64,000 bases of DNA, taken from Candidatus Forterrea multitransposorum CG_2015-17_Forterrea_25_41 (lineage in GTDB: Archaea; Iainarchaeota; Iainarchaeia; Iainarchaeales; CSSED10-239). The notes beneath the pieces are model-generated. The model did not search any database and was not told where the DNA came from. It saw nothing but the letters and a program-made list of their open reading frames with translations. Shown piece after piece: positions 10,322-50,845 of the stretch; the stretch's first letter is position 1; the number at the start of each line of letters is the position of its first letter. Made by a program: the position numbers and the translations under genes. The DNA lies in contig CP045477.1 in the NCBI GenBank assembly GCA_009392915.1, positions 256,001 through 320,000 on the forward strand. The letters are read 5' to 3'.

Positions 10322-10684
10322 ATGAGAAGATACATTTATTTATTTTTAATCGTTTTCTTAGTTTTTCCATTTATTTCTGCACTTAGTTATGATAATGAAA
10401 TCTATGTAAACCCTTTTGTTTTTGGTGTAATTAGAGGGGATGATGGGGAAGTTATTTCAAATATTTCTGATGATGAAATAATAGATCCTGAAATGCAAGT
10501 TTCAAGTGCAAATGGGTTTACTAAAAAATCAGATCTTGATTTAACCATAAGAGAGAATCTTTTGATTTTTAAACTTCCTTCTTATCAAAAAACAAATAAT
10601 AATTCTTTAAATAAATATACTTTTATTTATAATACCTTTGATTATCCTTCAAAGAATGTAAATATTTTATTTAAATTAAATTGA
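10322..10684 (+). CDS. Small secreted protein (120 aa), unknown function
   Basis: N-terminal signal-peptide-like sequence MRRYIYLFLIVFLVFPFISA|LS. A TATA-like ttaatatatatatatt lies ~25-30 nt upstream of the ATG with no SD, suggesting a leaderless start. The stop overlaps the start region of the next gene. Confidence 0.55.
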   Translation: MRRYIYLFLIVFLVFPFISALSYDNEIYVNPFVFGVIRGDDGEVISNISDDEIIDPEMQVSSANGFTKKSDLDLTIRENLLIFKLPSYQKTNNNSLNKYTFIYNTFDYPSKNVNILFKLN

Positions 10685-10692
10685 GAAAATAT

Positions 10693-13133: not shown

Positions 13134-16100
13134 ATGTCAATATTTAAAAAATCAAGAGACAAAATAGAAGCAGAAAAGCTATATGCTCTTTTATCAGACA
13201 AAACTACAAACTATACTCTAGAGGATATTAAAGAGACTATTAAAAAACAAGGTTATTCTGATAAAGTTTCTTCAATTGTTGTAAAGATGATTACAGATAA
13301 TAAACTTCCTTTAAAAGATTCAGTTAATAAAACAAAAACAAAAGAAGAAGTCTTAAAAGAATTATCAGCTTCTGTTGATAAAAACTTCTCTAAACAAAAT
13401 CCAAAAGATTCTTCAAAAGATTCAAAAAAAGAAGATAAAAATAATCAAAAAGAAAATACAAAAAAACAAGAAGATATTAAAAAAGAAGATTCTAAAAAAC
13501 AAAAAGAAGATCTTAAAAAAACAAAAGAAACAAATTTAAAAAATATTAATAAAGTTCCTTTCTTTACAAAAGTAAAAACTTTCTTTAAAAGAATATATTT
13601 CTTTTTTGAAGATAATTACTATAAGATGGTTGATGGTGTAAGTAAAGTTATACCTCTAAACAAATTAACAGACAAAATAGATAAAGTTTTCCCAAGTTTC
13701 ATATTATTCTTATTAATCTTAGCTTTATTGATATATTTAATACTTTCAGGAAGTTTATCTTTCTCTAAAACTTGGACAGTTGCTGTAGAGGTTTATGACC
13801 CATCTTCTGTACCCTTAAAAGATGTTTCTGTAACTTTAATGCTTAAAGATGAAAATTTTTCAACTTTAAAAACAGATATTTTTGGTGAAGTTATTTTTAG
13901 TGATTTTAAATCTAGAAAACAAAATATTAATTTAATAGCTTCTAAAGATAATTATGATACAGTTGAACATTCCTTTAAATTAAGTAAAAGTAATTTAAGA
14001 CAAAAGTTATATCTTCCAACAGATGTAAATTCTAAGATTGATCCTTCAGAAGAAGAAGTAAGAGAAATTTCTTTTGTTGAAAATAATACTGTTTTAATAA
14101 CAGATTCTGTATTAACTACAAATTTTTCTTGTACTAATGCAGATGTAGAACCTAATCCTACAAGAAAAGTTATTTCTTCAGGAAAGGTAACAGTTACAAC
14201 TTATTCTGGTTGTGGTGCTTTAAGAGTTTCTGTAACTTCAGATGATTTTTCTTCAATTACAAATCAAGTTATAAATTCTTCAAATAAAGTAAATCTTACA
14301 AGAATTAATCTTGATAGAGGTAATTTAGGTTTCTCTGTTAAAAACATATCTGGAAGTTCAATTCCTGGAACAGAAGTTAAAGTTTATAGTTCTTCAAACA
14401 CTACTTTTCCTCATGATACAACCACAACTGATCTTTATGGTTTAGGTGAGTTTAGTTTAGAACCTAAAAGTTATTTTTTAACTTTCTCAAAAGAAGGTTA
14501 TCTAACAAATCCTTTAAAAGGTCCTTTAACTGTTATTAAAAATGATTCTGTAAACACAGATGTAGTTTTATTTACTTTAGATGATCTTTTAGAATTTGAT
14601 TGTTCTGATGATAAATATTCACAATTTTGTATTGCTGATGAAATTGATTGTTTTAATCCAAACTTAAAACCATTTTTAATAAATAATGCTGATGGTTCTT
14701 GTACAATTGGAAGACCAGGTTATATTTCTGTAACTTTAAAAGATGTTAATTCTGGAGAACCTGTATATGCAGATATAACTTTAGATTCAAAATTAAAAGA
14801 ATCTGATCAAAACTTTTCTCTTGGTGAACATATTGCAAGGGATACTAATTTCTATACTTTTAATGTTATTGATTTCTATAATTATAGAGTAAGAGTTTTA
14901 AATACAGAAGAGAGTGGTTATCTTCAACCAGATCCAGTCACTGTAAACGGTATTGATCAAAATATAACAGTTAATTTAGAATATTCTTCTTCCCTTAACT
15001 CAGGAGATATTTCAGTAAATGTTAAGAGTGCAGATATGCCTATCTCAAATGCAAGAGTTTATTTATATAAAGAGTTTGAAGATGATTTTGTTTTAGTAAA
15101 TTCTGATCCATTATTTACAAATCAAAATGGAGATGTTAATTTTTATTCTCAAAGAGCAAATAGAGATTATTATGCTTATGCTTTACATAATGTTTTAGAT
15201 AAACAAGGAACTTCACAAACAGATGATTTAGATGTTAACTCAATACTTGATTTATCAATAGATCTTGAAGATATTCCAAAGATATTAAATCTAAAGGTAA
15301 GTCCAAGTATTTCTTATGATATTAATTTTTATAATTCTTCAGATAATCTTGTAACTGAATATGTAAGAACAGATCTTGAAGATGGAAATTCTCTTTATTA
15401 TTTTACAGGTTCTATAAATAAAGTTTATGCAGTTGTTTCTTCTTCAGGTTATACTACCTATCAAACAGATTATATTACTTTAATACCTGATCAAGAAGTT
15501 TATAAAACAGTTAATCTTTCTACACTTTCTTCTTGTGAAGACTCTAAGTTAGAAATTTTAGGTCTTTATGATGGTTCTGGAGTTTTAGAAATTGATAATA
15601 TTGATTTTGTTGAAAATGATTTAGATAAAGAATACAGATTAAAGTTTAAATATATTTCATGTACAGAAGATGAAGAATACAATCAAGCTACTTTAAGACT
15701 TGGAAGACAAGGTTTAATAGATGATGAATATTTATTCTTTGTTTCAGATCAATTTACTTCTCAAGATATAGATGTTACAAGAGGTTATAAATTTTCACAA
15801 GAACATATACCTGACTTTAATTTTGATCTTTTCAATCTTAATTATTCTCAAGATAGATCTTATGATTATTCTGGTGAAGGTTATAAATGGATTGAAATTG
15901 ATTTTGAAAAATTAAATTCTGATATCTTAGAGTTTTCAACTAACTTTAAGTTCAGAGAAGATTCAATTGTTCCTTTTGAAAACTATGTTTTAAATTATAA
16001 ATCATTTGCAAGTATTTATGATGAACTTTATTCTTTTGATCCTGTTTTAAATGAATCTTGGACAGAGATACCAATCTATCCTAATGGTTATTTTTATGCA

Positions 16101-19100
16101 GAAACAAACAAATATTTAATACCTTTTGAAAATACAGATTATATTTATTCTGTAAAATTAAAAGACTGGAATCAAAATCTTTTAGAAGAATATGCTGGTG
16201 GTTATCCTGTATCTATTAATAATTTTTATAAATATGATCTAAGTTATTTATATTTAAATCAAACAGAAAGAAACGGTAGTGTTTTACAATCTTCTCAATA
16301 TACAAATAATAATTTAGATTATTTAAGTTATGGTTATACTTCATCTTTAGGTAACTCAAGTTCAGGAGATACTCAAAATGCTACAAATAACATGACTTCA
16401 TTTTTAATACTTCCAGATTATAATACTCTTCCAGGTTCAACAGATACTACTATAAATCAAGAAATCTATTATCATATTAATGTTGATGATTATAATTATT
16501 CTTTAGATGATATTAATGCAGAGATTGGTTATTATTTAAATACTTATACTCTTTTAGAGCCAAAAGGTTTTTTTGAAAATACTAATTTTTCAGATTCAAG
16601 TATTATTTCTGATGTTTTAGATGAGTACCCTTTAGTTAATACAAGTATTTATTCTTATTTATCTGATGAAAATTTTATATTTAATATTTCAACTAACTTT
16701 TCAGGAAACAGAATAATTATTGGTGAAAATAATTTAGGTTTTAAAGTTTTAGATAATTATGGTTCTCCAGTTTCAAATGTTTTAATAAAGTATAAAGTTG
16801 ATGGTGATGAGCTTATAACTTTAGGGTCTACAAATGAACAAGGTATGCTTAGTGATCAAAATATTTTTATAAATCTTTCAGATATTGGAAAAAATATTAA
16901 TTTTGTATTTTTGTTTTCTCCAGAGTTTGGTTTCCTTGCAAACACAGTTGTAAGAAACAAAGAAATCTATTCTGGATTTTCAATAGTTCCAGAAGATATT
17001 AATTTATCTGCAAGTTATTATATTTTAAATGATCAAGTTATAATTGATCAAGTTTCTACAAATAATTATAATCTTTTAAAAGAAACAAATTATTCAAGCA
17101 CTTTAGAAGAAATTGATTTTGTTGGAGAATCAAGTTTGTTTAATCTTGATTCTATTAAAAATAAAATGATTGAAGATAATAATCTTGTAAAAGATTTATT
17201 AGAAGGAGAAAATGAAATTATTACAAGTCTTTTCTTAAACAATAATATTTCTCAATCAACAAATCTTTTAGGTTATTATAGAAATGAAATTGATATTAAT
17301 AATTCTTTAACACAATTATTAGATATTAATTCAAATGTTGAAATTATTAATCTAGGTTCAATTAACTATGATTTTAATCTTGAAAAACATTTTATGAAAG
17401 GACTATTAATTGAAAACAATAATGTTTCTCTTGAGCTTATAAAAGAAATAAACGAATTAATTACTTTAGATTTAAATCTTTTATCAGATAACTCTCAAGC
17501 AACATTTGATAGTATTTCTGTAGAGCTTCCTGAATTTTTAGATCTTGAAGAATTTAATGAAGGTTATTCTTCTTTAGTTGGAGAGTCTTTAACTTCTGAT
17601 GGTTTAATAATTCCTCTTAACTTTAAGATTAATAACTCCTATTCAGGTTCTCTTCCAACTCCAAAGGAAGATATTAATTTAACTTTTAATGTTTATCTTG
17701 ATGATAAATTAGTTTCTTTTAATAAAATAATTTCAATAAAAGTATATTCTAAAGATGACATCTTTTTAATAGAGTCTGAAGGAGACTTACAGATCTATTG
17801 TACTGTTGAAAATTGTTCTCAAAAAAAATCTTTTACTTTTAAAAAATTAGTTAATAATTATATATTAAATCTAAATAAAGAAATTGAAATCAATGAGATG
17901 GATTTAATTGAAGTTTCAAATCTTTTAAGTAATATTAATTTTATTGACCTTTCTGAAAAGAACAGAGCTTTATCTTTTAGTGCCCTATATAATTCTGTTA
18001 ACGAAGAAAATAAACAAGGTAATTTTGATTTAATTTTTAATATTAATATTTTAAATGATTCTTTTAATATAGAAATACCTATTGATTATTTAATTATAAA
18101 ATATTTAGAAGAAGAAACCATAAGTGAAATTACTTTTAATTCCTGTATTGGTGTTGGTGGTCAAGAAAGCAGTAGTGATTTATTTATTTTAGGTTATTGT
18201 CAAGATACCCAAGATACTTGTAAAACAGGAGAATCTGCTGTTCCAAAAGTATTTTTTAATTGGGCAGAATCTGACCTTTCAACAGATTATGACGGAAAAA
18301 CCTGGAATAATGTCTGTATTGGTAATAGCCAAGATACAATGTCAAGTAAATATGCTTGTGATTCCTTACAAATGTTAATTTCAATTTTTAATAAAATTGA
18401 TAATGGTGTAGAAGAATCATTCTATATTAAACTTTTAAATGATGGAATTTCTGATGCTCTTTTAAAAGATTTTATAAATTATAATACACTTTACTTAGGT
18501 TATGATAAACCTAGTGAAGAGATCTTTTCAGAAGATGCAGTTGATGATGGTTTATTTAAAATAACAATTAATAATTCTCCAGAAATTAAAATTTTCCAAC
18601 CTGGTATCTATAAAGTTTTAGTATATGGTGATGATTCAGGAAATGCATATATGGGAAGAGAAGAAGATCAAATGATAGATATACGTCTAGAAAAGGTAAG
18701 TGATCTTCCTGCATCAGAGATAAGTGTATTCCACTATATGCCATTTAATGGTAATTTAGGTTTAGATGGTACAAGAGAGGGTTACGGTATTAAAAATCAA
18801 GATAGTGATGTTGCTCAATTAACTCAAGATGTTGATATTAATTATATTGATGTTATAGATGAAATAATTCAACTATCTTTAACTAATAATAATCTAGAAA
18901 CTTCTCACTTAACACAAACATTAAAGTCTGAAGGAAAAATACTTGAATTAAATAAATATGATAGTGTTGTTGAAATGATTTATTCTCCTTCATATCCAGT
19001 ACCAATATATTCTCATGTAGCATGTATTGATAAAGATGATTTTAGTTATAATCTTTATGAAAATAATAATGCTTTAGATAATATTATAGGTGGATCATTT

Positions 19101-19577
19101 ATTGATTGGAATTTTAATAATACCATAAGATCAGATGTTAAAACAACAGTAACAGGAGATGTTACTAGATACGTATTTAACAATAATAATTTAGAAGGTT
19201 CTTTAAACCTTAATTCAATGTTATATCTTCCTGTAAAATTAAATATTGATTCTTTAAAACTTAAAACCACAGAGTTTGCAAATAATAAAAATACAACTTT
19301 ATTTACAAAGAATAATTTTACAGGTGTAAATCAAGCAGATTTAGTTTTCTCTGAAGATGATTATGTTCTTGGAAATGATTTAATAAACCTTAATACTATT
19401 AAAGGTTTATTTAATTTTATAAGTCAAGAAAAAGCATGTATTGAAAAATCTATTGATAACACAACTATTAAATGGATTGATGAAAAAGTTAATTTTACAG
19501 AACAAGAATTACTTGATATAAATAGTAATATTCCTTCTGATTATTCTTGTCTTGAAGGAGAGGTAATCATAGATTAA
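13134..19577 (+). CDS. Giant (2147 aa) type-II-like membrane protein: Lys/Glu-rich cytoplasmic N-terminus, single TM, tandem beta-sandwich repeats, short version of the conserved C-terminal module
   Basis: Long ORF. TM segment FPSFILFLLILALLIYLILSG lies at nt ~13688-13752. CarboxypepD_reg-like units are present (e.g. GFSVKNISGSSIPGTEVKVYSS...TDLYGLGEFSLEPKSYFLTFSKEGY). The C-terminal module from nt 18144 carries CKTGESAVPKVFFNW, YACDSLQ and FHYMPFNGNLGLDGTREGYGI. Confidence 0.85.
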   Translation: MSIFKKSRDKIEAEKLYALLSDKTTNYTLEDIKETIKKQGYSDKVSSIVVKMITDNKLPLKDSVNKTKTKEEVLKELSASVDKNFSKQNPKDSSKDSKKEDKNNQKENTKKQEDIKKEDSKKQKEDLKKTKETNLKNINKVPFFTKVKTFFKRIYFFFEDNYYKMVDGVSKVIPLNKLTDKIDKVFPSFILFLLILALLIYLILSGSLSFSKTWTVAVEVYDPSSVPLKDVSVTLMLKDENFSTLKTDIFGEVIFSDFKSRKQNINLIASKDNYDTVEHSFKLSKSNLRQKLYLPTDVNSKIDPSEEEVREISFVENNTVLITDSVLTTNFSCTNADVEPNPTRKVISSGKVTVTTYSGCGALRVSVTSDDFSSITNQVINSSNKVNLTRINLDRGNLGFSVKNISGSSIPGTEVKVYSSSNTTFPHDTTTTDLYGLGEFSLEPKSYFLTFSKEGYLTNPLKGPLTVIKNDSVNTDVVLFTLDDLLEFDCSDDKYSQFCIADEIDCFNPNLKPFLINNADGSCTIGRPGYISVTLKDVNSGEPVYADITLDSKLKESDQNFSLGEHIARDTNFYTFNVIDFYNYRVRVLNTEESGYLQPDPVTVNGIDQNITVNLEYSSSLNSGDISVNVKSADMPISNARVYLYKEFEDDFVLVNSDPLFTNQNGDVNFYSQRANRDYYAYALHNVLDKQGTSQTDDLDVNSILDLSIDLEDIPKILNLKVSPSISYDINFYNSSDNLVTEYVRTDLEDGNSLYYFTGSINKVYAVVSSSGYTTYQTDYITLIPDQEVYKTVNLSTLSSCEDSKLEILGLYDGSGVLEIDNIDFVENDLDKEYRLKFKYISCTEDEEYNQATLRLGRQGLIDDEYLFFVSDQFTSQDIDVTRGYKFSQEHIPDFNFDLFNLNYSQDRSYDYSGEGYKWIEIDFEKLNSDILEFSTNFKFREDSIVPFENYVLNYKSFASIYDELYSFDPVLNESWTEIPIYPNGYFYAETNKYLIPFENTDYIYSVKLKDWNQNLLEEYAGGYPVSINNFYKYDLSYLYLNQTERNGSVLQSSQYTNNNLDYLSYGYTSSLGNSSSGDTQNATNNMTSFLILPDYNTLPGSTDTTINQEIYYHINVDDYNYSLDDINAEIGYYLNTYTLLEPKGFFENTNFSDSSIISDVLDEYPLVNTSIYSYLSDENFIFNISTNFSGNRIIIGENNLGFKVLDNYGSPVSNVLIKYKVDGDELITLGSTNEQGMLSDQNIFINLSDIGKNINFVFLFSPEFGFLANTVVRNKEIYSGFSIVPEDINLSASYYILNDQVIIDQVSTNNYNLLKETNYSSTLEEIDFVGESSLFNLDSIKNKMIEDNNLVKDLLEGENEIITSLFLNNNISQSTNLLGYYRNEIDINNSLTQLLDINSNVEIINLGSINYDFNLEKHFMKGLLIENNNVSLELIKEINELITLDLNLLSDNSQATFDSISVELPEFLDLEEFNEGYSSLVGESLTSDGLIIPLNFKINNSYSGSLPTPKEDINLTFNVYLDDKLVSFNKIISIKVYSKDDIFLIESEGDLQIYCTVENCSQKKSFTFKKLVNNYILNLNKEIEINEMDLIEVSNLLSNINFIDLSEKNRALSFSALYNSVNEENKQGNFDLIFNINILNDSFNIEIPIDYLIIKYLEEETISEITFNSCIGVGGQESSSDLFILGYCQDTQDTCKTGESAVPKVFFNWAESDLSTDYDGKTWNNVCIGNSQDTMSSKYACDSLQMLISIFNKIDNGVEESFYIKLLNDGISDALLKDFINYNTLYLGYDKPSEEIFSEDAVDDGLFKITINNSPEIKIFQPGIYKVLVYGDDSGNAYMGREEDQMIDIRLEKVSDLPASEISVFHYMPFNGNLGLDGTREGYGIKNQDSDVAQLTQDVDINYIDVIDEIIQLSLTNNNLETSHLTQTLKSEGKILELNKYDSVVEMIYSPSYPVPIYSHVACIDKDDFSYNLYENNNALDNIIGGSFIDWNFNNTIRSDVKTTVTGDVTRYVFNNNNLEGSLNLNSMLYLPVKLNIDSLKLKTTEFANNKNTTLFTKNNFTGVNQADLVFSEDDYVLGNDLINLNTIKGLFNFISQEKACIEKSIDNTTIKWIDEKVNFTEQELLDINSNIPSDYSCLEGEVIID

Positions 19578-20507: not shown

Positions 20508-20777
20508 ATGAATAAAAGTACTTTAATAGAAGCTGTTGTTAAGAAAACAGATTTATCAAAAGCAAAAGCTGAAGAGTTTATTAATACAACTTTAGAAGCT
20601 ATGAAAGTAATTGTAAAAAAAGAAGGTAAATTACAATTAGTTGGTTTTGGTACATTCAAAGTTAAAAAAAGAGCTGCTAGAATGGGTAGAAATCCACAAA
20701 CAGGAAAATCTATGAAAATAGCTGCTAGTAAAACAGTTTCATTCAAAGTTGGTAAAGAATTTAAAGAGAGATTATAA
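20508..20777 (+). CDS. hup: Bacterial-type DNA-binding protein HU/IHF family (89 aa)
   Basis: Full-length match to the HU signature: MNKS.LI..V......SKA.AE.....T.......V..G..LQLVGFGTF.V..RAAR.GRNPQTG....I.A....SFK.GK..K. SD GGGGG lies 9 nt upstream. Confidence 0.9.
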   Translation: MNKSTLIEAVVKKTDLSKAKAEEFINTTLEAMKVIVKKEGKLQLVGFGTFKVKKRAARMGRNPQTGKSMKIAASKTVSFKVGKEFKERL

Positions 20778-21198: not shown

Positions 21199-21271
21199 GG
21201 TCATAATAGTGTAGTGGTTAGCATAGGAGTCTGTGGAGCTTCTGGCCCGGGTTCAAATCCCGGTTATGACC
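21199..21271 (+). tRNA. tRNA-His (anticodon GUG) with genomically encoded G-1
   Basis: 8-bp acceptor stem G-1:C73 plus GTCATAA/TTATGAC, anticodon arm GGAGT-CTGTGGA-GCTTC, T-arm CCGGG-TTCAAAT-CCCGG. An extra 5' G pairing with C73 is the tRNA-His hallmark. Confidence 0.88.
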
Positions 21272-21284
21272 CTTTTTAACCTTC

Positions 21285-21453: not shown

Positions 21454-22770
21454 ATGAATGATAAAATAATACTTGAAACCGCAAAAGGTTTTAGAGACTT
21501 TTCTCCTGAAGAAAAGATATTAAGAGATAAAGTTATTTTTAAAATAAAAAACATTTTTGAAAATTATGGTTTTTCTCCTCTAGAGACCCCAACTGTTGAA
21601 AAATTAGAAATTTTAGAAGCAAAGTTTGGAGCTGGAGAAGCTTCAGATGCAGTTTCTGAAATCTATAGGTTTAAAGATCAAGGTGATAGAGACTTAGGTC
21701 TAAGATATGAGTTTACTTTTGCCTTAGCAAGATACATTGGAATGAATCCTCAAACAAGACTTCCTTTTAAAAGATACCAAATAGGTCCAGTTTTTAGAGA
21801 TGGTCCTATTAAAGCAGGAAGATATAGAGAGTTTTATCAATGTGATGTTGATATTATAGGTGTTAATTCTCAAGAAGCTGATGCTGAAATAATTTCTTTA
21901 CTTGATTATGTTTTTAAAGAACTTAATCTAGAGGTTAACATAGAAATTAACGATAGACGTCTTTTAGAAGAAATCTTAGATTTTCTAAAAGTTACAAAAG
22001 AAAAACAAACTTCAGTAATTATAACTATTGATAAGCTTAAGAAAACAGGTAAGGAAGGGGTTAAAAATGAGCTTTTATCTAAAGGTTTAGATGAAAATAC
22101 CTGTGATTCACTGTTAAATATACTTCTTATCTCTAAAACAAACCAAGAAGCTTTAGAAGACCTATCTAAAACAATAGGAGAAACAGAAGGTATTGTTTCT
22201 TTAAGAAATTTATTTAGTTTTTTAGAGTATTATAATGTTAATTATATTTTCCTACCTTCTCTTGCAAGAGGGCTTGGTTACTATACAGGTCCAATCTTTG
22301 AAGTTTTTTTAAAAGATGAAACTATAATGTCTTCTTCAATTGCTGGTGGAGGAAGATGGGATAAAATGATAGGAAAATACTTGCAAGATGAAAATAGAAA
22401 TTATCCTGCTGTGGGTGTTGCTTTTGGTCTTGAACCAATCATGGAAATTATAAAAAAAAGAGATGGTATGGATAAAAAAACAACTGCTGATCTTTTTATA
22501 ATACCAATTGGTGATAAAAATATAAAAAAAGCTATTAGAATAACTCAAGAGATTAGAAAACAAAAAGTTAATACTTCAATTGATCTTTTAAAAAGAAATA
22601 TTGGAAAAAATATAGATTATGCAGATAAACTTGGTATAACATATGTTGGTTTTTTAGGAGAAAATGAAATTTTAGAAAATAAAATAAAAATTAAAAATAT
22701 AAAAACTGGAGAAGAATCTTTAATTGATGTTAAAGATGTTAAAAAACATTTAGTTGTAGAAGGTAATTAG
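21454..22770 (+). CDS. hisS: Histidyl-tRNA synthetase (class IIa)
   Basis: Motifs GFRDFSPEE, LRYEFTFALARY, FKRYQIGPVFRDGPIKAGRYREFYQCDVDIIG, GLGYYTGPIFE and GGGRWD are typical HisRS motifs. Confidence 0.93.
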   Translation: MNDKIILETAKGFRDFSPEEKILRDKVIFKIKNIFENYGFSPLETPTVEKLEILEAKFGAGEASDAVSEIYRFKDQGDRDLGLRYEFTFALARYIGMNPQTRLPFKRYQIGPVFRDGPIKAGRYREFYQCDVDIIGVNSQEADAEIISLLDYVFKELNLEVNIEINDRRLLEEILDFLKVTKEKQTSVIITIDKLKKTGKEGVKNELLSKGLDENTCDSLLNILLISKTNQEALEDLSKTIGETEGIVSLRNLFSFLEYYNVNYIFLPSLARGLGYYTGPIFEVFLKDETIMSSSIAGGGRWDKMIGKYLQDENRNYPAVGVAFGLEPIMEIIKKRDGMDKKTTADLFIIPIGDKNIKKAIRITQEIRKQKVNTSIDLLKRNIGKNIDYADKLGITYVGFLGENEILENKIKIKNIKTGEESLIDVKDVKKHLVVEGN

Positions 22771-27179: not shown

Positions 27180-28307
27180 ATGAATTTTTTAAAAATAATC
27201 TCTTTTGTCTTAATTGGTTTAGTTGTTTTTTTAGTGGCATCTTCATATCTTGCAAATGATTCTTTTCAAGATGTAAAATCAGATACTTCTGATAAAATAG
27301 ATTCAACTATTGAAGATGTTAAAGATAATAATCTTTTTTCAAAACCAAAAGATGCATATGATTCTATAAAAAATAAAATTACCTTTGGTTCTTTTGATAG
27401 AAATATTTCAACTGAAGTATTTTTTTGTCCTGAAGAAGATTGTTTAACAGAACTTTTAGAGTTGATTTCTTCTTCTAAAAAAACAATTGATTGTGCGGTA
27501 TATGATGTTTCTCTTGAAACTGTAACTGATGCTTTAATTGAAAAATCAAATCAAGGTCTAGAAATAAGGTTTATTTCAGATTATGGAACTTCTCAAAATA
27601 AATCTTCAAATTTAGGATTATTAAAAGATTCAAATGTTACAGTTCTTACAAACTCTTCAGAATCTTCTTACATGCATAATAAATTTTGTGTTTTTGATGA
27701 AAAAATTGTTTTTGTAGGTTCAATGAATTTTACATTAAATGGAAATTATAAAAATAATAATAATGTTTTAATAATTGAAGATAAAGAAATTGCAAAAGAA
27801 TATACTAACAAAATAGATTCTTTTTTTAAAGGAGAATTTTCTCCAAAACCTAAAGAAGTTTATAATGTTAATAATTATGGTAATCTAGAAAATTATTTTT
27901 GTCCTGAAGATGATTGTTTATATCATCTTTTAAGATTTGCAAATGATGCTAATTATTCTATTGAATGTATGCTTTTTAGTTATACTTTAGATGATTTCTT
28001 TCAAGAAGTTGTTGATAAAAATATAGATCAGAGATATATTTTAGAGTCAAGAGGAATTAGTCAATATTCTAAATATAATGATCTTAAGAATAATTCCATT
28101 CCTGTTATTTTAGATCAAAACCCAAATAGTATGCATAATAAATTTTGTATTATTGATGATTATATTGTTTTAACTGGTTCTATGAACTATTCAAATAATG
28201 GTACTAAAAATAATGATGAAAGTTTTTTAGTAATACATGATTTTGAGATTGCTCAAGAATATAAAGATTATTTTAATGACTATTGGACATCTTGGAGTAA
28301 TAATTAA
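27180..28307 (+). CDS. Phospholipase D-family protein with two HKD motifs and an N-terminal TM anchor
   Basis: TM segment IISFVLIGLVVFLVASSYL. HKD1 HNKFCVFDEKIVFVGSMN starts at nt 27675 and HKD2 HNKFCIIDDYIVLTGSMN at nt 28134. Both fit HxKxxxxDxxxxxxGSxN exactly. Confidence 0.85.
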   Translation: MNFLKIISFVLIGLVVFLVASSYLANDSFQDVKSDTSDKIDSTIEDVKDNNLFSKPKDAYDSIKNKITFGSFDRNISTEVFFCPEEDCLTELLELISSSKKTIDCAVYDVSLETVTDALIEKSNQGLEIRFISDYGTSQNKSSNLGLLKDSNVTVLTNSSESSYMHNKFCVFDEKIVFVGSMNFTLNGNYKNNNNVLIIEDKEIAKEYTNKIDSFFKGEFSPKPKEVYNVNNYGNLENYFCPEDDCLYHLLRFANDANYSIECMLFSYTLDDFFQEVVDKNIDQRYILESRGISQYSKYNDLKNNSIPVILDQNPNSMHNKFCIIDDYIVLTGSMNYSNNGTKNNDESFLVIHDFEIAQEYKDYFNDYWTSWSNN

Positions 28308-28379: not shown

Positions 28380-28453
28380 GGGGCTGTGGTGTAGCCTGGT
28401 TAGCATTTAAGCTTTGGGAGCTTACGACCCCCGTTCAAATCGGGGCAGTCCCA
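28380..28453 (+). tRNA. tRNA-Pro (anticodon UGG)
   Basis: Cloverleaf of 74 nt: acceptor GGGGCTG/CAGTCCC (one G-U pair), anticodon arm TAAGC-TTTGGGA-GCTTA with G37, T-arm CCCCG-TTCAAAT-CGGGG, discriminator A. TATA-like ctatatatatatt lies ~10-20 nt upstream. Confidence 0.88.
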
Positions 28454-28484
28454 CTCTTTTACTAAACTTCTTTAATAGATTATT

Positions 28485-29526: not shown

Positions 29527-30990
29527 ATGCCTTCAGATGAAAAATATAAAATAAAAGATTTAAACGAATGGTTTAATGATATTATCTTTAAAGCAGAACT
29601 TATTGATGTAAGATATAACTTAAAAGGTTTTACTGTATTTAGACCAAGATCTGTTTTTTCAATAAGTAAAATGTTTAGAATATATGAAGATAAGTTTAAT
29701 GAAACTGGTCATCAACAAGTAATGATGCCTGCATTAATACCTGAAGAAAATTTTTTAAAAGAATCAGATCATATTGAAGGCTTTACTCCTGAAGTTTTCT
29801 GGGTAACTAAACATGGAGATGAAGATTTTGAACAAAAGTATGCATTAAGACCAACTTCTGAAACTGCATTTTATTATATGTTTAAATATTGGGTACAAAG
29901 TTATAGAGACTTACCTTTAAAAACATATCAAAGAGCAAATGTTTTTAGATTTGATTCAAAAGCTACAAAACCATTTATTAGAGGTAGAGAATTTTACTGG
30001 TATGAATCTCATAATATTTTTGAAACTTTACAAGAAGCAGTAAATCAAGTTTATGAAGATATGCAAATAACAGAAGATATGCTTCATGAAGAATTTGGTA
30101 TACCATTTATTTTCTTTAAAAGACCACAATGGGATAAATTTCCAGGAGCTGTAGATACTTTTGCAGCAGATACTATTTTAGATAATGGAAGAATATTACA
30201 ACTTCCTTCAACACATCTTTTAGGAACTAAGTTTACTGAAACTTTTGATGTTAAGTTTAAAGATAAAGATGATGAAATGAAATATCCTTTTGGTACTTGT
30301 TATGGTCCTGCAATTTCAAGAATATATGGTGGAATGATTTGTGTTCATGGAGATTCTCTTGGTTTAAGAATACCTTTTGATTTAGCTCCTGTTCAAATAA
30401 TTTTAGTTCCTTTATATTTTAGTGATTTTGATAATACTAAATTAGAAGCATTTTGTTTAGATATAGCACAAGATTTAGATAAACTTGGATATAGAGTAAA
30501 AATAGATGATCAGACTTCAAAAACTCCAAAAGAAAGATTTTCAGAATATGAAATGAAAGGAATCCCTATAAGAATAGAAATTGGTCCAAAAGATATTTTT
30601 TCAGGAACAGTTGTAATCTTTAGAAGAGATTTAAATGAAAAGAAAAAAGTTGATGTTGCAGATATTTTTGATGAAATAAAACTTATTGAATCTGAGTTTA
30701 TAAATAATTTAAGATCTCAAGCAGATGAAGTTTTTGAAGAAAAAATTATAACTGTTAACAACATGGATGATTTAAAAGAAGTTATAGATGATAACCTTGT
30801 TGCAAGAGTACCATTTTGTTCAATAGATATGGATGGTAAAAATTGTTTTGAAGAACTTAAAGCAGAAACAAAAGGTGGAGACATTAGAGGAGTAAGGATG
30901 GATGTTAAAGAAGTTCCTGAAGAAAATGATGTTTGTGTTGTTTGTAAAAAGAAAGCTCAATCTATTGTGTATGTAGGTAAAAGTTATTAA
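29527..30990 (+). CDS. proS: Prolyl-tRNA synthetase (archaeal/eukaryotic type)
   Basis: Motifs ALRPTSETAFYYMF..W..SYRDLPLK.YQ..NVFR.....KPFIRGREF.W.E.H, plus the C-terminal Zn-type domain VCVVCKKKA..IVYVGKSY. Confidence 0.92.
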   Translation: MPSDEKYKIKDLNEWFNDIIFKAELIDVRYNLKGFTVFRPRSVFSISKMFRIYEDKFNETGHQQVMMPALIPEENFLKESDHIEGFTPEVFWVTKHGDEDFEQKYALRPTSETAFYYMFKYWVQSYRDLPLKTYQRANVFRFDSKATKPFIRGREFYWYESHNIFETLQEAVNQVYEDMQITEDMLHEEFGIPFIFFKRPQWDKFPGAVDTFAADTILDNGRILQLPSTHLLGTKFTETFDVKFKDKDDEMKYPFGTCYGPAISRIYGGMICVHGDSLGLRIPFDLAPVQIILVPLYFSDFDNTKLEAFCLDIAQDLDKLGYRVKIDDQTSKTPKERFSEYEMKGIPIRIEIGPKDIFSGTVVIFRRDLNEKKKVDVADIFDEIKLIESEFINNLRSQADEVFEEKIITVNNMDDLKEVIDDNLVARVPFCSIDMDGKNCFEELKAETKGGDIRGVRMDVKEVPEENDVCVVCKKKAQSIVYVGKSY

Positions 30991-44031: not shown

Positions 44032-44787
44032 ATGACTAGATTTAAAAATACTTTAAAAAAGTTATTACCAGATAGACTTAGATATGGAAAAGGCTATGTT
44101 CTTGAAAATAAAATGTCTAAAGTTTCAACTTCTTATAATATTAAAGAATATAATATAAATTATTTAAAAGAAGTTAATAATTTTTATAAAACATTTAGAC
44201 TAGATTCTAAAAAATATTCTCTTTCTAAAACTAATTTTAAAGCTTTAAGAAATAAAGACTCAAGAGAGCTTGTTGTTAGAGGAGTTTATTCTCTTTTTAA
44301 ATCTTTTAATGTTTCTGATGAATTAATTTTAAAAAGATTTCCAAATAAAACAAAAAAAGAAAGAGAGCTTATTAAAAATAAGTTATATAATCAGAAATAT
44401 CCTAAACTTGCAAGTGAAGTTATTGAAAGTATTAATTTATTTTTAAAAACTAGAAAACAAGAAATGCAACCAAGATACTTAGAAAAATTTGCAGAAATTT
44501 TTTATGAACTTAATCTTTTAAAAGAAAAAGAAAATTTAAGAATTGAAGGAAATAAATTTTTTTTAGAAGTTTTTAATAAACTTAATGAAATCACAAAACA
44601 AGAAAATAATTCTCAAAAAATAAACAATTCAACTCCTGCTTATGATTATTTATCTTCAATTTCTGGAGATTTTATTGAATTTGTAATTAGAAGTAGAAGT
44701 AATAATAAAAATAAATATGTAACTGTTAAAGAATTTAAAAAAGAACAATTTTCTTTAGATAGAATTAAAAAATATAGTGTTAGGTAA
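44032..44787 (+). CDS. Hypothetical Lys-rich protein (251 aa)
   Basis: ORF only; no recognisable motif. Inserted between rps7 and the EF-2 gene. Confidence 0.45.
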   Translation: MTRFKNTLKKLLPDRLRYGKGYVLENKMSKVSTSYNIKEYNINYLKEVNNFYKTFRLDSKKYSLSKTNFKALRNKDSRELVVRGVYSLFKSFNVSDELILKRFPNKTKKERELIKNKLYNQKYPKLASEVIESINLFLKTRKQEMQPRYLEKFAEIFYELNLLKEKENLRIEGNKFFLEVFNKLNEITKQENNSQKINNSTPAYDYLSSISGDFIEFVIRSRSNNKNKYVTVKEFKKEQFSLDRIKKYSVR

Positions 44788-44821
44788 ATTTTATAATAAT
44801 TTTTAAAAGAAAAGAAAAATC

Positions 44822-45451
44822 ATGCAAAAAGATAATAACTGGGATAATATTTATTCTTCTGTAAAGAATCTTAAAAAACTTCCTTGGGTAAGAACCACAA
44901 TACCAGAGTGGTTTAAACTAATAATTAATTCTAAATGGATAGCCCCTTGTAAAACATTAGATGTTGGGTGTGGAAATGGTTATTTTTCATATTATCTTTC
45001 AAAAAAAGGCTTTAAAGTTACAGGTATTGATGTTTCAAAAGAAATTATTATTTATGCAAAAAAATCTTATCCTCAAAGTAATAATCTAAAATTTATTGTG
45101 TCTAATTTTTTTAATAAAGAAACTCTTTCTGAAAAATATAATTTTATTTTAGATATTGGACTTTTCCATAATATCTTACCAGAGAAAAGAAAAGAATTTT
45201 CAAAAAGACTTTCAGAGCTTCTTTTTGATAAAGGTAAGGTTTTAATCTTTTGTTTTGATAAAAGAGAAGGTACTTTTGAGAATAAAGAAATATACTTTAA
45301 TTCATTAATTAACATGTATTCATATCCTCTTTCAAAAGAAGAAATAATTAAAACTTTTAGTAAAGATTTTATTATTGAAAAAATAGAAGAAATAAGACAT
45401 GGTACAAATAATTATAAAAGACGTTATCTTTGTTTTTTAATTAAAAAATAA
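44822..45451 (+). CDS. Class I SAM-dependent methyltransferase (209 aa)
   Basis: Motif I LDVGCGNGYFSYYLSKKGFKVTGIDVS..II..AK, with post-I and II segments NFILDIGLFHNI. Confidence 0.75.
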   Translation: MQKDNNWDNIYSSVKNLKKLPWVRTTIPEWFKLIINSKWIAPCKTLDVGCGNGYFSYYLSKKGFKVTGIDVSKEIIIYAKKSYPQSNNLKFIVSNFFNKETLSEKYNFILDIGLFHNILPEKRKEFSKRLSELLFDKGKVLIFCFDKREGTFENKEIYFNSLINMYSYPLSKEEIIKTFSKDFIIEKIEEIRHGTNNYKRRYLCFLIKK

Positions 45452-45644: not shown

Positions 45645-47843
45645 ATGGGAAGAAAAGAACAAGTTGCTGAGCTTGCAGAAAAGCTTATGGCAAATACAAA
45701 AAATATTAGAAATATTGCAATTATTGCACACATTGATCATGGAAAATCTACTTTAACAGACAATTTAGTTGCAACTGCTGGTTTAATTTCAAAAGATTTA
45801 GCAGGAGAACAAAGATTCATGGATTCATATGTTTTAGAACAAGAAAGAGGAATTACAATTAATTCTGCAAACGTTTCTGTTCCATGTGATATTGATGGTG
45901 AAAAATTTTTAATAAATATTATTGATACACCAGGTCACGTTGATTTCACTGGTGATGTTATAAGAGCGATGAGAGCTGTTGATGGTGCTGTTTTAGTTGT
46001 TGATGCTGTTGAAGGTGTTATGCCACAAACAGAAACTGTATTAAGACAAGCTTTAAGAGAAAAAGTAAAACCTGTACTTTTTATTAATAAAGTTGATAGA
46101 TTAATTACAGAAATGCATGTAACTCCAGAAGATATGCAAAAGAAATTTGTTAAAGTTGTAATGGATATTAATAATTTAATTGCAAAAAATGCTCCTGAAG
46201 AATTCAGAAAAGATTGGTTAGTAAATATTGCAGATGGTTCTGTATGTTTTGGTTCTGGTTTCCATAATTGGTCTCTTTCAGTTCCTGCTATGAAAAAATA
46301 TAATGTAACTTTTAAAGATGTTATTGAGTATGCAGAAAATGAAAAACAAAAAGAACTTGCAGATAAAATTCCAATTTCAGAAGTTTTCTTAGGAATGGTT
46401 GCAAAACATCTTCCTGATCCAAAGACTTCTCAAAAATATAGAATCCCAACTATTTGGAAAGGAGATCCTGAATCCCCAGAAGGAAAAGCAATGTCTGAAT
46501 GTAATACTACATCAGAAGAAGTTTCAATGATGGTAACTGATATTGTTTTAGATAAACATGCAGGAGATATTGCTTCTGGAAGAATTTATTCTGGATCAAT
46601 TAAAAAAGGAATGGATTTAAAAGTTTTAGGAACAGATAGAACAACTAAAGTTCAATATGTTGGTATTTATTTAGGTCCTGAAAGAGTTATTTTAGATGAA
46701 GTAAAATCTGGAAATATTGCTGCAATTATTGGACTTAAAGAAGTTTATGCTGGTCAAACAATTGCAAGTCACGATATTGTTCCATTTGAAGATTTCATGT
46801 CAGATGTTGAACCAGTAATGACTGTTTCTGTTGAAGCTAAAAATTCAAAAGATCTTCCAAGATTAATTCAAGTTATTCATAATATAACTAAAGAAGATCC
46901 AAACATAAAAGCTGAATTAAATCAAGATACAGGAGAACATCTTTTATCAGGTATGGGTGAACTTCACTTAGAAATTACACAATACAAGATTGAAAAAGAT
47001 AATAATATTCCAATAACTGTTTCACCACCAATTGTTGTTTACTATGAAACAACAACACAAGAATCTCCAGTTGTTGAAGGAAAGACTCCAAACAAACACA
47101 ATAAATTTAAAGTTAGAGTTGAACCAATCTCTTCAGAAATGCTTGAAAAAATTAGAAAAATTAAGTTTACTGGAAAGATAAGACCTAACAAAGATTTAGA
47201 TATTATTAAAAAATTACAAGAAGCAGGATTTGATGTTGACGAATCAAAGAATGTTTGGGCAATCAATAATCATTCAATTTTAATTAATAGAACAAAAGGA
47301 ATACAAAACTTAAATGAAGTTAGAGAACTTATAATTGAAGGATTTACAGATGCTACAAATGAAGGTCCTGTTGCTAAAGAAAAAGTATCTGGAATTATTG
47401 TTTCTCTTGAAGATGCAACATTACACGAAGATGCAATCCACAGAGGTCCTGCACAAGTTCTTCCTGCAATAACAAGAGCAATATATGCTGGTGTACTTGC
47501 TGGTAACTATGTTCTTTTAGAACCAAAACAAAGTTTAACTGTTTCAGTTCCTCAAGATTTTATGGGTTCTGTTTCTAAAGTTTTATCTTCAAGAAGAGCA
47601 CAAATTGAAGATATTAAAACAGAAGGAGATTCTTCAATTTTTATTAGTAAGATTCCTGTAAAATCAATGATTGGTTTCTCACAAGAGATGAGAGGAGAAA
47701 CACAAGGTAGAGCTGTTTGGACTGCTGAATATTTTGGTTATGAACAACTTCCAAAAAGTATGCTTAAAGACACAATCATAGATATTAGAAAAAGAAAAGG
47801 TATGGATCCTGAACCAAAACCTGCTGAGTTTTTCATGGATTAA
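45645..47843 (+). CDS. fusA: Translation elongation factor 2 (aEF-2)
   Basis: G1 motif AHIDHGKST, DTPGHVDF, NKVDR, and diphthamide-site context HEDAIHRGPAQ. AGGTGA RBS 8 nt upstream. Confidence 0.95.
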   Translation: MGRKEQVAELAEKLMANTKNIRNIAIIAHIDHGKSTLTDNLVATAGLISKDLAGEQRFMDSYVLEQERGITINSANVSVPCDIDGEKFLINIIDTPGHVDFTGDVIRAMRAVDGAVLVVDAVEGVMPQTETVLRQALREKVKPVLFINKVDRLITEMHVTPEDMQKKFVKVVMDINNLIAKNAPEEFRKDWLVNIADGSVCFGSGFHNWSLSVPAMKKYNVTFKDVIEYAENEKQKELADKIPISEVFLGMVAKHLPDPKTSQKYRIPTIWKGDPESPEGKAMSECNTTSEEVSMMVTDIVLDKHAGDIASGRIYSGSIKKGMDLKVLGTDRTTKVQYVGIYLGPERVILDEVKSGNIAAIIGLKEVYAGQTIASHDIVPFEDFMSDVEPVMTVSVEAKNSKDLPRLIQVIHNITKEDPNIKAELNQDTGEHLLSGMGELHLEITQYKIEKDNNIPITVSPPIVVYYETTTQESPVVEGKTPNKHNKFKVRVEPISSEMLEKIRKIKFTGKIRPNKDLDIIKKLQEAGFDVDESKNVWAINNHSILINRTKGIQNLNEVRELIIEGFTDATNEGPVAKEKVSGIIVSLEDATLHEDAIHRGPAQVLPAITRAIYAGVLAGNYVLLEPKQSLTVSVPQDFMGSVSKVLSSRRAQIEDIKTEGDSSIFISKIPVKSMIGFSQEMRGETQGRAVWTAEYFGYEQLPKSMLKDTIIDIRKRKGMDPEPKPAEFFMD

Positions 47844-48106: not shown

Positions 48107-48346
48107 ATGGCTGTAAAAAAGAAAGTAGTTGCAAAAAAAGCACCTGCTAAAAAAGCTGTTGTTAAGAAAAAAGCACCTGTTAAAAAAGTAGTTGCTAAAA
48201 AAGCACCAGCTAAAAAAGTAGTTGCAAAAAAAGCACCTGCTAAAAAAGCTGTTGTTAAAAAAGCACCTGCTAAAAAAGTAGTTGCTAAAAAAGCACCAGC
48301 TAAAAAAGTAGTTAAAAAGAAAGCACCTGCTAAAAAGAAAAAATAG
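48107..48346 (+). CDS. Small, very basic Lys/Ala/Val/Pro repeat protein (79 aa; about seven KKAPAKKVVA decapeptide repeats), histone-H1-tail-like
   Basis: 30-nt tandem periodicity (aaaaaagcacctgctaaaaaagtagttgct and variants) held in one open frame. Strong GGAGGG RBS 9 nt upstream, preceded by a ttctgc-tttt-gcagaa hairpin (48071-48086). Confidence 0.75.
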   Translation: MAVKKKVVAKKAPAKKAVVKKKAPVKKVVAKKAPAKKVVAKKAPAKKAVVKKAPAKKVVAKKAPAKKVVKKKAPAKKKK

Positions 48347-48476
48347 GTGTCATCTTTATTTAATAACTATTTTATTTTAATAAGTCTTTTTTTATAAAAG
48401 GCTTATTTTTTCTATTTTTTTAATATTTTCTTTTAAAAAATATATTTAAATACCTTAATATCTATCTATATATATC

Positions 48477-49604
48477 ATGATTAAAAATATAACTTTATTA
48501 GGTTCAAATAATGATATTGGTATTAAGACAATTGAGTTTTTAAAAAACAATACTAATAAGTTTAAAATCTATTCTCTTTCTTATGACTCTAAGGTAGATA
48601 ATCTTGATTTTTTTATATCTCAAATAAAAGATGTTTCTCCAAAGAAAGTTTTTATACCTTTAGAAAAAGATGCTGAATATATAGAATCTAAAACTAAGGT
48701 TGAGATAATTACAGGTACTGAAAATTTTCCTGAGTTTATAAAATCAAATGAAATTGATCAAGTAATTTCTTCTTTATCAGGACTTTCAAGTGTTAAAAAA
48801 ATATTATCAACTATTTATGAGTTTAAAGATATTACTTTACTTAATACATCTCCTTTTCTATATTGTGGAAGAATAATTACAAATGAAGTTAAATCAAAAG
48901 GAGTAAATTTTAATATTTTTTCATATCCAGTTTATTCTTTAGATTTTATTTTAAAATCTTCAAATATTAATTTTATTAAAAATATTAATTTATTTACAAA
49001 ACAAAAAAACAAAAAAGAAAAAATAACTATTAATGATTATAAAGATTTTGGAAGTTATCTTAAAGCATATTATTCTGAAAATAATATAAGACTTGTAAAT
49101 GATATGTTTATTATTTATTATTTATATAATATTCCAATAGATAATTTTAATTTTTATGAACAATCAGAAAGAATAATAAATATTGAAATAAAATTTTTAA
49201 ATGGTACAAGTGTTTTCTTTAAAGCAAATCTAGATATAGATAGTATTTTTAATTATTATTTTTTAGATAATGAAAAAATAGTTGAAAATAAAGAAAAAGA
49301 TCTTGATAAAATATCTTTTTCATATAAAAAAATAGATCCAACTAAAGAAAAGTTTTTAAGTTTAGGTATAGAAACTTTAAAAAAAGGTGGTTCTTTTCCA
49401 ATAATCTATTATATAACAATTGAAACATTACTTTATTATATTTATAAAAGAAAAATTAAAGAAAACATAGATATTTATAAAATTGTTAAAGAATTTTTAG
49501 AAGACAAAACACTTTATGATAAATTCCCTGATTTAAGTTCTGTTTATGCTATTGATAATAAGATAAATGAAAAAATCAAAAATAAATTTAATATTAAAAA
49601 CTAA
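48477..49604 (+). CDS. Highly divergent DXR (1-deoxy-D-xylulose-5-phosphate reductoisomerase)-like protein with degenerate cofactor and metal motifs
   Basis: Colinear with E. coli Dxr as I remember it. [11 protein letters not shown] aligns to [53 protein letters not shown] aligns to [50 protein letters not shown] aligns to PVDSEHNAIF. The C-terminal [12 protein letters not shown] aligns to LKLAMEAFEQGQ. Confidence 0.55.
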   Translation: [375 protein letters not shown]

Positions 49605-50380
49605 ATTGATTCTTCATAAATTATAATTCCAGCATTACTTTTTTCTTTAGCTTCTTTTAAAAGATTTTTATTTTCTTCAATATATTTAACACCATAGTTT
49701 GCAACTACATGCCCAAAACAGTATTTATTATTTATATTAAAGGTAAGTCTATTAAATCTTGTACAATAATGACTTCCTCCAACACCAACAGCTTCAATCC
49801 ATTGATTTTTATTTTTAATTTCTTCTTTGTTATAATCTTTAATATTTTCTATTAAGATTTTAATCATATATTTTGAAACTAATTTATTTGTCCAATCATT
49901 TTCACAAGATCCTATTTCATAAAATAAAGTTGGTTCTTCAAGATATGGTCCATGATGCGTTGCTTCTTGTTTAATTTCATATTCTTTTATTTCTTTAGGT
50001 TTATTTTTTTTTAATTCTATTAAAAGTAATCTCATTAATATTGGGTCAGCTTTTACAACTGCATGATCTTTTCCACCTAATTCTGCAATTCCCCAATTAC
50101 CGATTGCATGTACTGTCATACATTTAGGTTTATTTTCAGAAAGAGTAGAATGTCTTGACAAAAAGATAATTTGATCATATTTTTTTTCTCCAACAATATT
50201 TTTTTCTGAAGAATAAATATGTGTTTCTGATATTTCTTTGAAGAATATTTCGTTTTTACTTTCAATATTTATTTTATAGATTTTATCATCTATTTTTTCT
50301 AAAGAATAATAATTAAACAATTCTTCCTTAAGATTAATTGAAGCTAAATCTTCTTTTGAAGTAATTATTAAAATTTTCAT
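49601..50380 (-). CDS. dtdA: D-aminoacyl-tRNA deacylase, archaeal type (DtdA/DTD2)
   Basis: Motifs IITSKEDLASINL, IFLSRHS, CMTVHAIGNW, ELGG, EATHHGP and FYEIGS match the PF04414-type pattern. The 3' end overlaps the convergent DXR-like gene by 4 nt. Confidence 0.8.
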   Translation of the reverse strand: MKILIITSKEDLASINLKEELFNYYSLEKIDDKIYKINIESKNEIFFKEISETHIYSSEKNIVGEKKYDQIIFLSRHSTLSENKPKCMTVHAIGNWGIAELGGKDHAVVKADPILMRLLLIELKKNKPKEIKEYEIKQEATHHGPYLEEPTLFYEIGSCENDWTNKLVSKYMIKILIENIKDYNKEEIKNKNQWIEAVGVGGSHYCTRFNRLTFNINNKYCFGHVVANYGVKYIEENKNLLKEAKEKSNAGIIIYEESI

Positions 50381-50491: not shown

Positions 50492-50845
50492 ATGATAAAT
50501 ATTACAAACTCTCTATTTCCGTTTAGATTAAACATTAATGAAAAAAACCCAATAGAATTAACTTTAAAAATAAAAAATATGGGTGTTGAAGATAAATTTA
50601 TAAGTTATGATGTAATTTTAGAAAGAACTCTTTCTTTTGATAAAAGTGGTCTTAAAAAATCAGTTTCAATAAGACACGGAACTTTAAAACCAGATGAAAC
50701 TATATCTGAAAAATTAGACATTTTTCCTTTCCAAGGTATTAAAGCAGGAGACCATAGAGTTTTAGTTATTGTTAACGAACATTATTTAGATTATACTTCT
50801 TTAAAACAAAAAACAGAGAAAGTAATTATCATTAGATCCTTCTAA
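50492..50845 (+). CDS. Hypothetical small beta-rich protein (117 aa)
   Basis: AGGTGA RBS upstream. The CARDB-like strand pattern NPIELTLKIKNMGVEDKF is weak evidence. Confidence 0.5.
   Translation: MINITNSLFPFRLNINEKNPIELTLKIKNMGVEDKFISYDVILERTLSFDKSGLKKSVSIRHGTLKPDETISEKLDIFPFQGIKAGDHRVLVIVNEHYLDYTSLKQKTEKVIIIRSF

Follow-up and report, generated by a model that had tools for sequence, protein, structure and literature searches.

A conserved family of Dxr-like proteins that have lost the Dxr active site, encoded between EF-2 and DTD2 in Iainarchaeota

The reductoisomerase Dxr (IspC; EC 1.1.1.267; TIGR00243), which turns 1-deoxy-D-xylulose 5-phosphate (DXP) into 2-C-methyl-D-erythritol 4-phosphate (MEP), has a three-domain fold that is described by the Pfam models PF02670, PF08436 and PF13288. 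Among archaea, a clade of the DPANN group Woesearchaeota has a complete, horizontally acquired, bacterial-related MEP pathway with a canonical dxr (PMC8204110; PMC8421398; PMC6107057), and its genes are reported to be co-located (PMC8204110). A further DXP reductoisomerase, the DXR-like enzyme (DRL or DXR-II) of Brucella abortus (PDB 3upl), is a two-domain NAD(P)-dependent oxidoreductase of distantly similar structure. Here we describe a Dxr-like gene at 48477..49604 (+ strand) of a 64-kb stretch of the genome of Candidatus Forterrea multitransposorum (contig CP045477.1, positions 256,001 to 320,000; hereafter the window), an intact open reading frame (ORF) of 375 amino acids plus stop. Like the Woesearchaeota protein its product is a Dxr homologue in a DPANN archaeon, but whereas the former belongs to a full pathway, the latter is a lone and apparently dead copy. 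We find that it is a member of a real, conserved and previously undescribed family, which we call pseudo-Dxr. The reading that we favor, as probable though well short of certain, is that the gene encodes an ancient, vertically inherited DXR-fold pseudoenzyme with a non-catalytic role in binding or scaffolding.

The initial annotation had proposed that the protein has a DXR fold and is colinear with Dxr over its full length, and profile and structure searches agree on this. PF02670 matches residues 5-124 (E 4e-15) and PF13288 residues 273-364 at 21.7 bits, just under its cut-off, and the window protein has no match to the catalytic-domain model PF08436. In a phmmer search of the PDB (E 1.8e-13) the alignments cover residues 2-327 and 3-363, and Dxr chains are the only matches that are both significant and of appreciable length. 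With hhalign, profiles built from 20 family members and from 20 canonical Dxr sequences aligned over 371 columns (probability 99.94%, E 3.3e-37). The AlphaFold2 model of the window protein has a mean predicted local distance difference test score (pLDDT) of 91.8 and a predicted template modelling (TM) score of 0.90, and a Foldseek search of the PDB gave DXR structures throughout its top 50 matches, at TM scores of 0.81-0.85. As a control against a fold borrowed from the canonical sequences, a member of subfamily s2 was modelled from an alignment of the family only, with a pLDDT of 90.7. The protein is thus homologous to Dxr from end to end, colinear with it and of the same three-domain fold, with no rearrangement. 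We considered a Brucella-type DRL identity and rejected it, as DRL is not the closest structural or sequence relative among these matches; no relation to DRL was detected at the sequence level, Pfam matching only Dxr domains, and DRL is an active enzyme.

The N-terminal Rossmann-like domain (residues 1-145; 48477..48911, +) is the best conserved part of the family, with a column entropy below that of the other two domains in each subfamily. In the central, formerly catalytic domain (residues 146-285; 48912..49331, +) the fold is kept, including the four-stranded sheet in the AlphaFold2 model, and the active site is lost. The C-terminal helical domain (residues 286-375; 49332..49601, +) is basic, with an isoelectric point (pI) of 9.2, and its model helices span residues 292-371. 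Structural residues common to Dxr and the Dxr-like protein are G9, S10, Q49, D94, G102 and N123 (the last in most members), together with G131, G243, G304/G305 and P308.

We read the functional columns from an alignment of 38 family members and eight canonical Dxr sequences, numbering the functional residues as in E. coli Dxr. A published list of Dxr binding-site residues includes K125, D150, E152, H153, S186, K228, E231, E234 and H257 (PMC6820192). The NADPH loop, GSTGSIG in canonical Dxr, has become GSNNDIG in the window protein (residues 9-15; 48501..48521, +) and (A/G)SQRKKS or GSD(T/S)xxG elsewhere in the family; in place of its middle Gly, a contact to the pyrophosphate, the subfamilies have N, R or T/S, and in place of T10 they have N, Q or D. 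LANKE(S/T) is replaced by LLNTSP (residues 121-126; 48837..48854, +). K125 is retained in no family member, being T or L in most and scattered in s3; E126 is S in s1 and stays E in 13/13 s2 sequences, and P126 is near-invariant in the family. The metal- and substrate-binding PVDSEH motif is faced by IFSYPV (residues 147-152; 48915..48932, +), D150, S151, E152 and H153 corresponding to S149, Y150, P151 and V152. The erosion of these motifs was correctly recognized in the initial annotation, which however set YPVYSL (residues 150-155) against PVDSEH, three residues off. HMMER, MAFFT and hhalign all place IFSYPV there, and in neither register does a metal ligand survive.

The loss continues through the rest of the site. 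S186, in the SGGPF loop, is faced by K175, and the next four columns are deleted across the family. In the H209-W212-M214 flap, H209 has become F191 and W212 has become Y194, and the remainder of the flap (HPxWxMG) is deleted, leaving it four columns shorter in the family. N227, K228, E231 and E234 correspond to R205, L206, D209 and I212, and H251 and H257 to Q229 and N235; S222, as S200, is the sole substrate- or phosphate-binding residue kept in the window protein. The metal ligands D150, E152 and E231 appear there as S149, P151 and D209, none of them canonical. Nine of the 15 catalytic-site columns (D150, E152, H153, H209, W212, K228, E234, H251 and H257) are canonical in 0/38 members, and the canonical residue is kept at S151 in 1/38, at N227 in 1/38, at E231 in 5/38 and at S222 in 21/38. 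The catalytic residues are thus not intact after proper alignment, and the erosion is wider than first listed. Canonical Dxr from AT-rich bacteria retains every motif, and base composition or compositional drift is therefore not the cause of the loss. Judged from these residues, the Dxr-like protein is predicted to be unable to turn DXP into MEP, and its presence is no evidence for a MEP pathway.

It could still be argued that the protein is a genuine, extremely diverged Dxr in a cryptic archaeal MEP pathway. The initial annotation had stated that Archaea are not expected to have Dxr, which is too general given the Woesearchaeota clade (PMC8204110; PMC8421398; PMC6107057), and the existence of a MEP pathway in some DPANN speaks for this option. 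It is nevertheless extremely unlikely. The NADPH fingerprint, all three metal ligands and most of the phosphate-binding and flap residues are gone; the NCBIfam Dxr equivalogs TIGR00243, NF009114 and NF003938 score only 76.7, 82.6 and 64.9 bits against cut-offs of 315.7, 461 and 515; and PF08436, which matches 8/8 canonical controls, matches 0/38 family members (PF13288 matches 13/38). Furthermore, the MEP genes of Woesearchaeota are reported to be co-located (PMC8204110), whereas neither the 64-kb window nor the surroundings of the homologues (6-10 kb around each) yielded any gene of the MEP or mevalonate pathway; the first 17 kb of the window was annotated by Pfam on selected ORFs, leaving out the 2466-aa ORF at 2848-10248. 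In this respect the earlier remark that the window holds no other MEP genes stands. Since the protein shows none of the functional features by which Dxr is defined, it should not be classed as Dxr.

The family is well separated from canonical Dxr. In a search of 1.84 billion representative sequences, 10 clusters fell below E 1e-30, followed by a gap to canonical Dxr at about 1e-15, and with a family profile the members score 363-519 bits and canonical Dxr at most 116 bits. In all, the family comprises about 40 sequence clusters in three subfamilies, characterized by the dinucleotide loops GSNNxxG (s1, which includes the window protein), (A/G)SQRKKS (s2) and GSD(T/S)xxG (s3). Identity is about 30% between subfamilies and 18-19% to canonical Dxr. 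All source labels that we found are Iainarchaeota/Diapherotrites (DPANN): orthologues with 62-90% identity are labelled "Candidatus Iainarchaeum archaeon" or "Candidatus (I)ainarchaeum sp.", and a more distant subfamily "Candidatus Diapherotrites archaeon". The family also has conserved residues of its own. Conservation is at least 85% among the 38 sequences in a segment of residues 102-141 (48780..48899, +) at G102, S105, K107, I109, L110, E115, K117, D118, P126, L128, Y129, G131, I133, I134, E137 and K141, with K117, D118, G131 and I133 invariant; other family-wide conserved residues are scattered Tyr, Gly and Pro positions, the invariant Y217, Y261 and Y323 among them. The substitutions and deletions described above are common to all three subfamilies, and catalysis was therefore lost before the subfamilies split.

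A gene that has lost its chemistry might simply be a functionless relic, a still-decaying pseudogene of a lost MEP pathway. The Dxr-like gene does evolve faster than its neighbors, with about 32% identity where EF-2 has 77%, S7 61% and DTD2 53%, and it lies in the DNA of lowest GC content of its surroundings (0.20, in a window ranging from 0.19 to 0.31). We consider a relic very unlikely, however. The ORF is intact and of full length in every relative examined, which comprise about 40 clusters and, from independent samples, roughly 40 loci, and the family has invariant residues of its own. The ratio of nonsynonymous to synonymous substitution rates (dN/dS) against a 90%-identical orthologue is 0.133 at a dS of 0.36, compared with 0.138 for DTD2 and 0.09 for EF-2; by domain it is 0.09-0.17, with 0.09 in the N-terminal and 0.17 in the central domain. 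Pairs more diverged than 90% identity were saturated (dS 0.7-1.5) and were left out. The gene is therefore clearly constrained, under purifying selection as strong as that on the neighboring enzyme DTD2. It is also kept in genomes where useless DNA is quickly lost, their largest contigs being only about 0.66-0.84 Mb (contigs bearing the gene reach 840 kb). Near-complete contigs with the gene include Ga0100381_1000002 of JGI (664 kb), CAZGHU010000001.1 of assembly GCA_964526055.1 (672 kb) and Ga0116249_10000002 (813 kb). What we find is thus a clear homologue of an enzyme that lacks the essential residues and yet is under purifying selection and conserved across lineages, as a pseudoenzyme would be. 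The suggestion in the initial annotation of a repurposed pseudoenzyme, or of a protein with another activity than Dxr, is in keeping with the destroyed motifs, the dN/dS of 0.13 and the lack of a PF08436 match in all 38 members.

The Dxr-like gene adjoins translation genes, whereas canonical dxr adjoins rseP, cdsA or isp genes (one bacterial example examined). In every one of roughly 40 loci, drawn from annotated contigs, GTDB representative genomes and 24 metagenome loci, the order is the same: the EF-2 gene, none to two small ORFs, the Dxr-like gene on the strand of EF-2, and then the convergent gene of DTD2. In the window, EF-2 (aEF2, from its Pfam content) is encoded at 45645..47843 (+), and it lies upstream in every locus that reaches far enough. 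DTD2, a D-aminoacyl-tRNA deacylase (PF04414), is encoded at 49601..50380 (-), its 3' end overlapping the Dxr-like gene by 4 nt. It is convergent and directly adjacent in all loci with downstream sequence, and the two 3' ends abut or overlap in most of the annotated loci. The S7-EF-2 linkage, otherwise near-universal, is broken in some loci, and there the order of EF-2, Dxr-like gene and DTD2 persists. Of the DTD2 clade members open to inspection, the two that diverge most (45-47% identity) have an s3 Dxr-like gene in the same position. As the locus is fixed across the clade, the Dxr-like gene must be old and vertically inherited. No outgroup with DTD2 and either an intact dxr or none was found in the DTD2 clade (44-93% identity), two outlying members of which were checked, and DTD2 homologues outside the clade have at most 39% identity and offer no informative outgroup.

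As to the origin of the family, the closest canonical Dxr relatives are unlabelled or bacterial, some of them AT-rich; one cluster is from Rickettsiales, and another lies beside dnaA and rseP. We draw no conclusion on horizontal gene transfer from these relatives because their ranking probably reflects base composition. We infer only that a transferred pathway of the kind found in Woesearchaeota would be a plausible source for the family ancestor.

We suggest the following course of events. Binding of NADPH, metal and DXP would have been lost before the three present subfamilies split, after which the gene would have been inherited vertically in the single locus between EF-2 and DTD2. The rigid Dxr architecture would have been kept for a role in non-catalytic binding or scaffolding, and the old active-site cleft would have been reshaped as its charged ligands gave way to bulkier residues of aromatic, hydrophobic or uncharged polar nature. 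This is consistent with the column entropies. In canonical Dxr the former cofactor and substrate pocket is far more conserved than the rest (0.30 vs 1.48, p 8e-14), while across the Dxr-like family the two do not differ (1.80 vs 1.80, p 0.43). The residues of the pocket vary by subfamily, the N227 position being R, W or mixed and the E231 position D, H or mixed, and the dinucleotide loop differs as well, with Asp, Arg or Asn at the pyrophosphate position. The family has also become basic, with a pI of 8.1-9.4 and a mean net charge of +8 to +12 across subfamilies, whereas canonical Dxr has a mean pI of 7.0 and a charge of about 0; in the window itself, EF-2 and the aminoacyl-tRNA synthetases range from near neutral to acidic. 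As the protein has turned uniformly basic, it could bind an acidic partner, either protein or RNA.

There are points that weigh against a non-catalytic scaffold. Within s1 and s2 the columns of the former catalytic site show stronger conservation than the other columns of the central domain (entropy 1.08 vs 1.65, p 0.006, in s1; 0.61 vs 1.05, p 0.02, in s2), a pattern that agrees with structural packing and no less with a re-tooled ligand site. Common descent within a single clade may be enough to explain the synteny with EF-2 and DTD2; between loci, the identity of EF-2 is 70-98%, and DTD2, being convergent, is not co-transcribed with the Dxr-like gene. Furthermore, a basic pI is common in AT-rich genomes.

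The conservation of the site in s1 and s2 is at the same time an argument for another reading, which we regard as possible but not as the likelier outcome, namely that the protein is a neo-enzyme or a small-molecule-binding protein, in which the cleft between the domains was re-tooled for another polar or hydrophobic ligand with a specificity that differs by subfamily. Such a protein would perform chemistry of its own, or would sense or carry a metabolite, possibly a scavenged lipid or isoprenoid. In s1 the site holds a near-fixed polar set (N11 20/20, N42 20/20, S125 19/20, Y150 19/20, S200 19/20, R205 17/20, D209 17/20 and Q229 20/20), s2 has a fixed aromatic and hydrophobic set (F, F/Y, W, L and H), and the dN/dS of the central domain, 0.17, can be counted on the same side. 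Both sets could form a new pocket, or could simply be side chains that fill the old one. There is no polar constellation common to the family, the pocket entropy equals the background, and s3 shows no excess of conservation at the site. The dinucleotide loop differs in all three subfamilies, with Asp or Arg at the pyrophosphate position, the flap and the phosphate loop are shortened, and no metabolic gene is among the conserved neighbors.

If the protein is a non-catalytic binding protein, its invariant neighborhood of translation genes and its basic charge make a translation-linked partner (EF-2, tRNA/DTD2 or rRNA) an attractive guess, although an unproven one, which the convergent orientation of DTD2 and the common descent of the loci make less compelling. 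A more specific version, which we hold to be doubtful, is that the DXR scaffold was recruited either as a translation-associated factor or, alternatively, as a cytosolic carrier for isoprenoid lipids scavenged from a host. In the former case the recruitment would have taken place in the ancestor of an Iainarchaeota clade, and the protein, basic and probably a dimer, would have EF-2, aminoacyl-tRNA/DTD2 or ribosomal RNA as its binding partner; such a role would explain why the triad of EF-2, Dxr-like gene and DTD2 has outlasted the S7-EF-2 linkage. As a lipid carrier, an equally novel alternative, it would use the now hydrophobic cleft for isoprenoid lipids. Rossmann-fold pseudoenzymes that have turned into binding or regulatory proteins are exemplified by NmrA and CSP41, which are atypical short-chain dehydrogenases/reductases. 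By analogy the Dxr-like protein may likewise have kept an oxidoreductase fold after losing its catalytic residues and re-used it for binding of protein or RNA; NmrA and CSP41 are of another superfamily and unrelated to it in sequence, and its own binding role is putative.

The annotation of these proteins in public databases is at present misleading or empty. The window protein is identical to NCP79385.1, which is named "hypothetical protein [archaeon]"; NCBI lists family members as "hypothetical protein", and JGI, wrongly, as "Dxr". Our literature searches on Dxr, DPANN/Diapherotrites, Iainarchaeota isoprenoids and reductoisomerase pseudoenzymes found no description of a catalytically dead Dxr family. 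When the metabolism of a DPANN genome is reconstructed, a "Dxr" label would wrongly imply that part of a bacterial MEP pathway is present, and we point out that the family needs a model and a name of its own, the immediate value of which would be to avoid false MEP calls in DPANN genomes. More generally, this is an enzyme fold that has apparently lost its chemistry completely and was nevertheless retained over a very long period, in genomes that are among the smallest known. Since such genomes normally purge dispensable genes, the new role probably matters to the organisms. Should the ancestor derive from a MEP pathway gained by transfer, like that of Woesearchaeota, the Dxr-like protein would represent a molecular fossil of the event. 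We know of no non-catalytic role for the DXR fold, and the identification of a partner would give this well-studied drug-target fold a new function; the scientific value of the family hinges on what the scaffold binds.

Some observations on the surroundings of the gene may be added. A TATA-like TTTAAATA (48445-48452) precedes the ATG by about 25 nt, a spacing that would suit a leaderless transcript; the DNA there is 20% GC, and the match is therefore no evidence for a promoter. An Rfam scan of the window found three tRNAs only, and no known RNA element near the Dxr-like gene. Between EF-2 and the Dxr-like gene lies a Lys/Ala/Pro-rich ORF of 79 aa (48107..48346, +), preceded just 5' by a Shine-Dalgarno-like GGAGGGAG and consisting almost wholly of AKKAPAKKVV-type repeats. 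Its only Pfam match is HC2 (histone-H1-like) at 35.4 bits, below the cut-off of 40, and a similar small ORF occupies this position in several relatives. The product may be a nucleoid or RNA-binding protein.

Between S7 and EF-2 (44032-45451, +), a 251-aa ORF without Pfam matches and a 209-aa S-adenosylmethionine-dependent methyltransferase (TPMT/TehB-like) split the usual S12-S7-EF-2 run, and the position of the methyltransferase is kept in the s1 genomes. On the other side of the Dxr-like gene, a 117-aa ORF without known domain lies beside DTD2 (50492-50845, +, in the window; 5503-5856 in locus L044 and 5518-5871 in L045); it adjoins DTD2 in s1 and s3 genomes and is a few kb away in those s2 genomes where it was detected (L016 and L017). 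A thymidylate-synthesis cluster is found downstream of DTD2 in s2 and s3 loci (L006, L007, L016, L017, L018, L044 and L045), with a varying set of SHMT, ThyX or ThyA, DHFR, a dCMP-deaminase fusion and thymidylate kinase, and is not at that position in the window.

The window as a whole is very AT-rich and archaeal in its gene content. The rest of it encodes, among others, split RNA polymerase A'/A'' and B'/B'', RpoH, L7Ae/L30e, S12, S7, an ATP-dependent DNA ligase and archaeal-type aminoacyl-tRNA synthetases. Two tRNA genes stand upstream of the gene for their cognate synthetase: tRNA-His (21200-21272) directly upstream of histidyl-tRNA synthetase (21454-22770), and tRNA-Pro (28380-28454) about 1 kb upstream of prolyl-tRNA synthetase (29527-30990). 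At about 20508-20777 (+) this archaeal genome has a gene for an HU DNA-binding protein (PF00216) of bacterial type. Four very large ORFs on the + strand, at 322-2832, 2848-10248, 10681-13110 and 13134-19577 (836, 2466, 809 and 2147 aa), probably encode giant surface proteins typical of DPANN episymbionts; for those of 836, 809 and 2147 aa, Pfam gave faint matches (Big_1, CarboxypepD_reg) or none. Finally, a 375-aa protein with two PLDc_2 (PLD-type) domains is encoded at 27180-28307 (+), between the genes for alanyl- and prolyl-tRNA synthetase; candidate functions are those of a nuclease and of a cardiolipin-synthase-like enzyme, with possible relevance to lipid scavenging.

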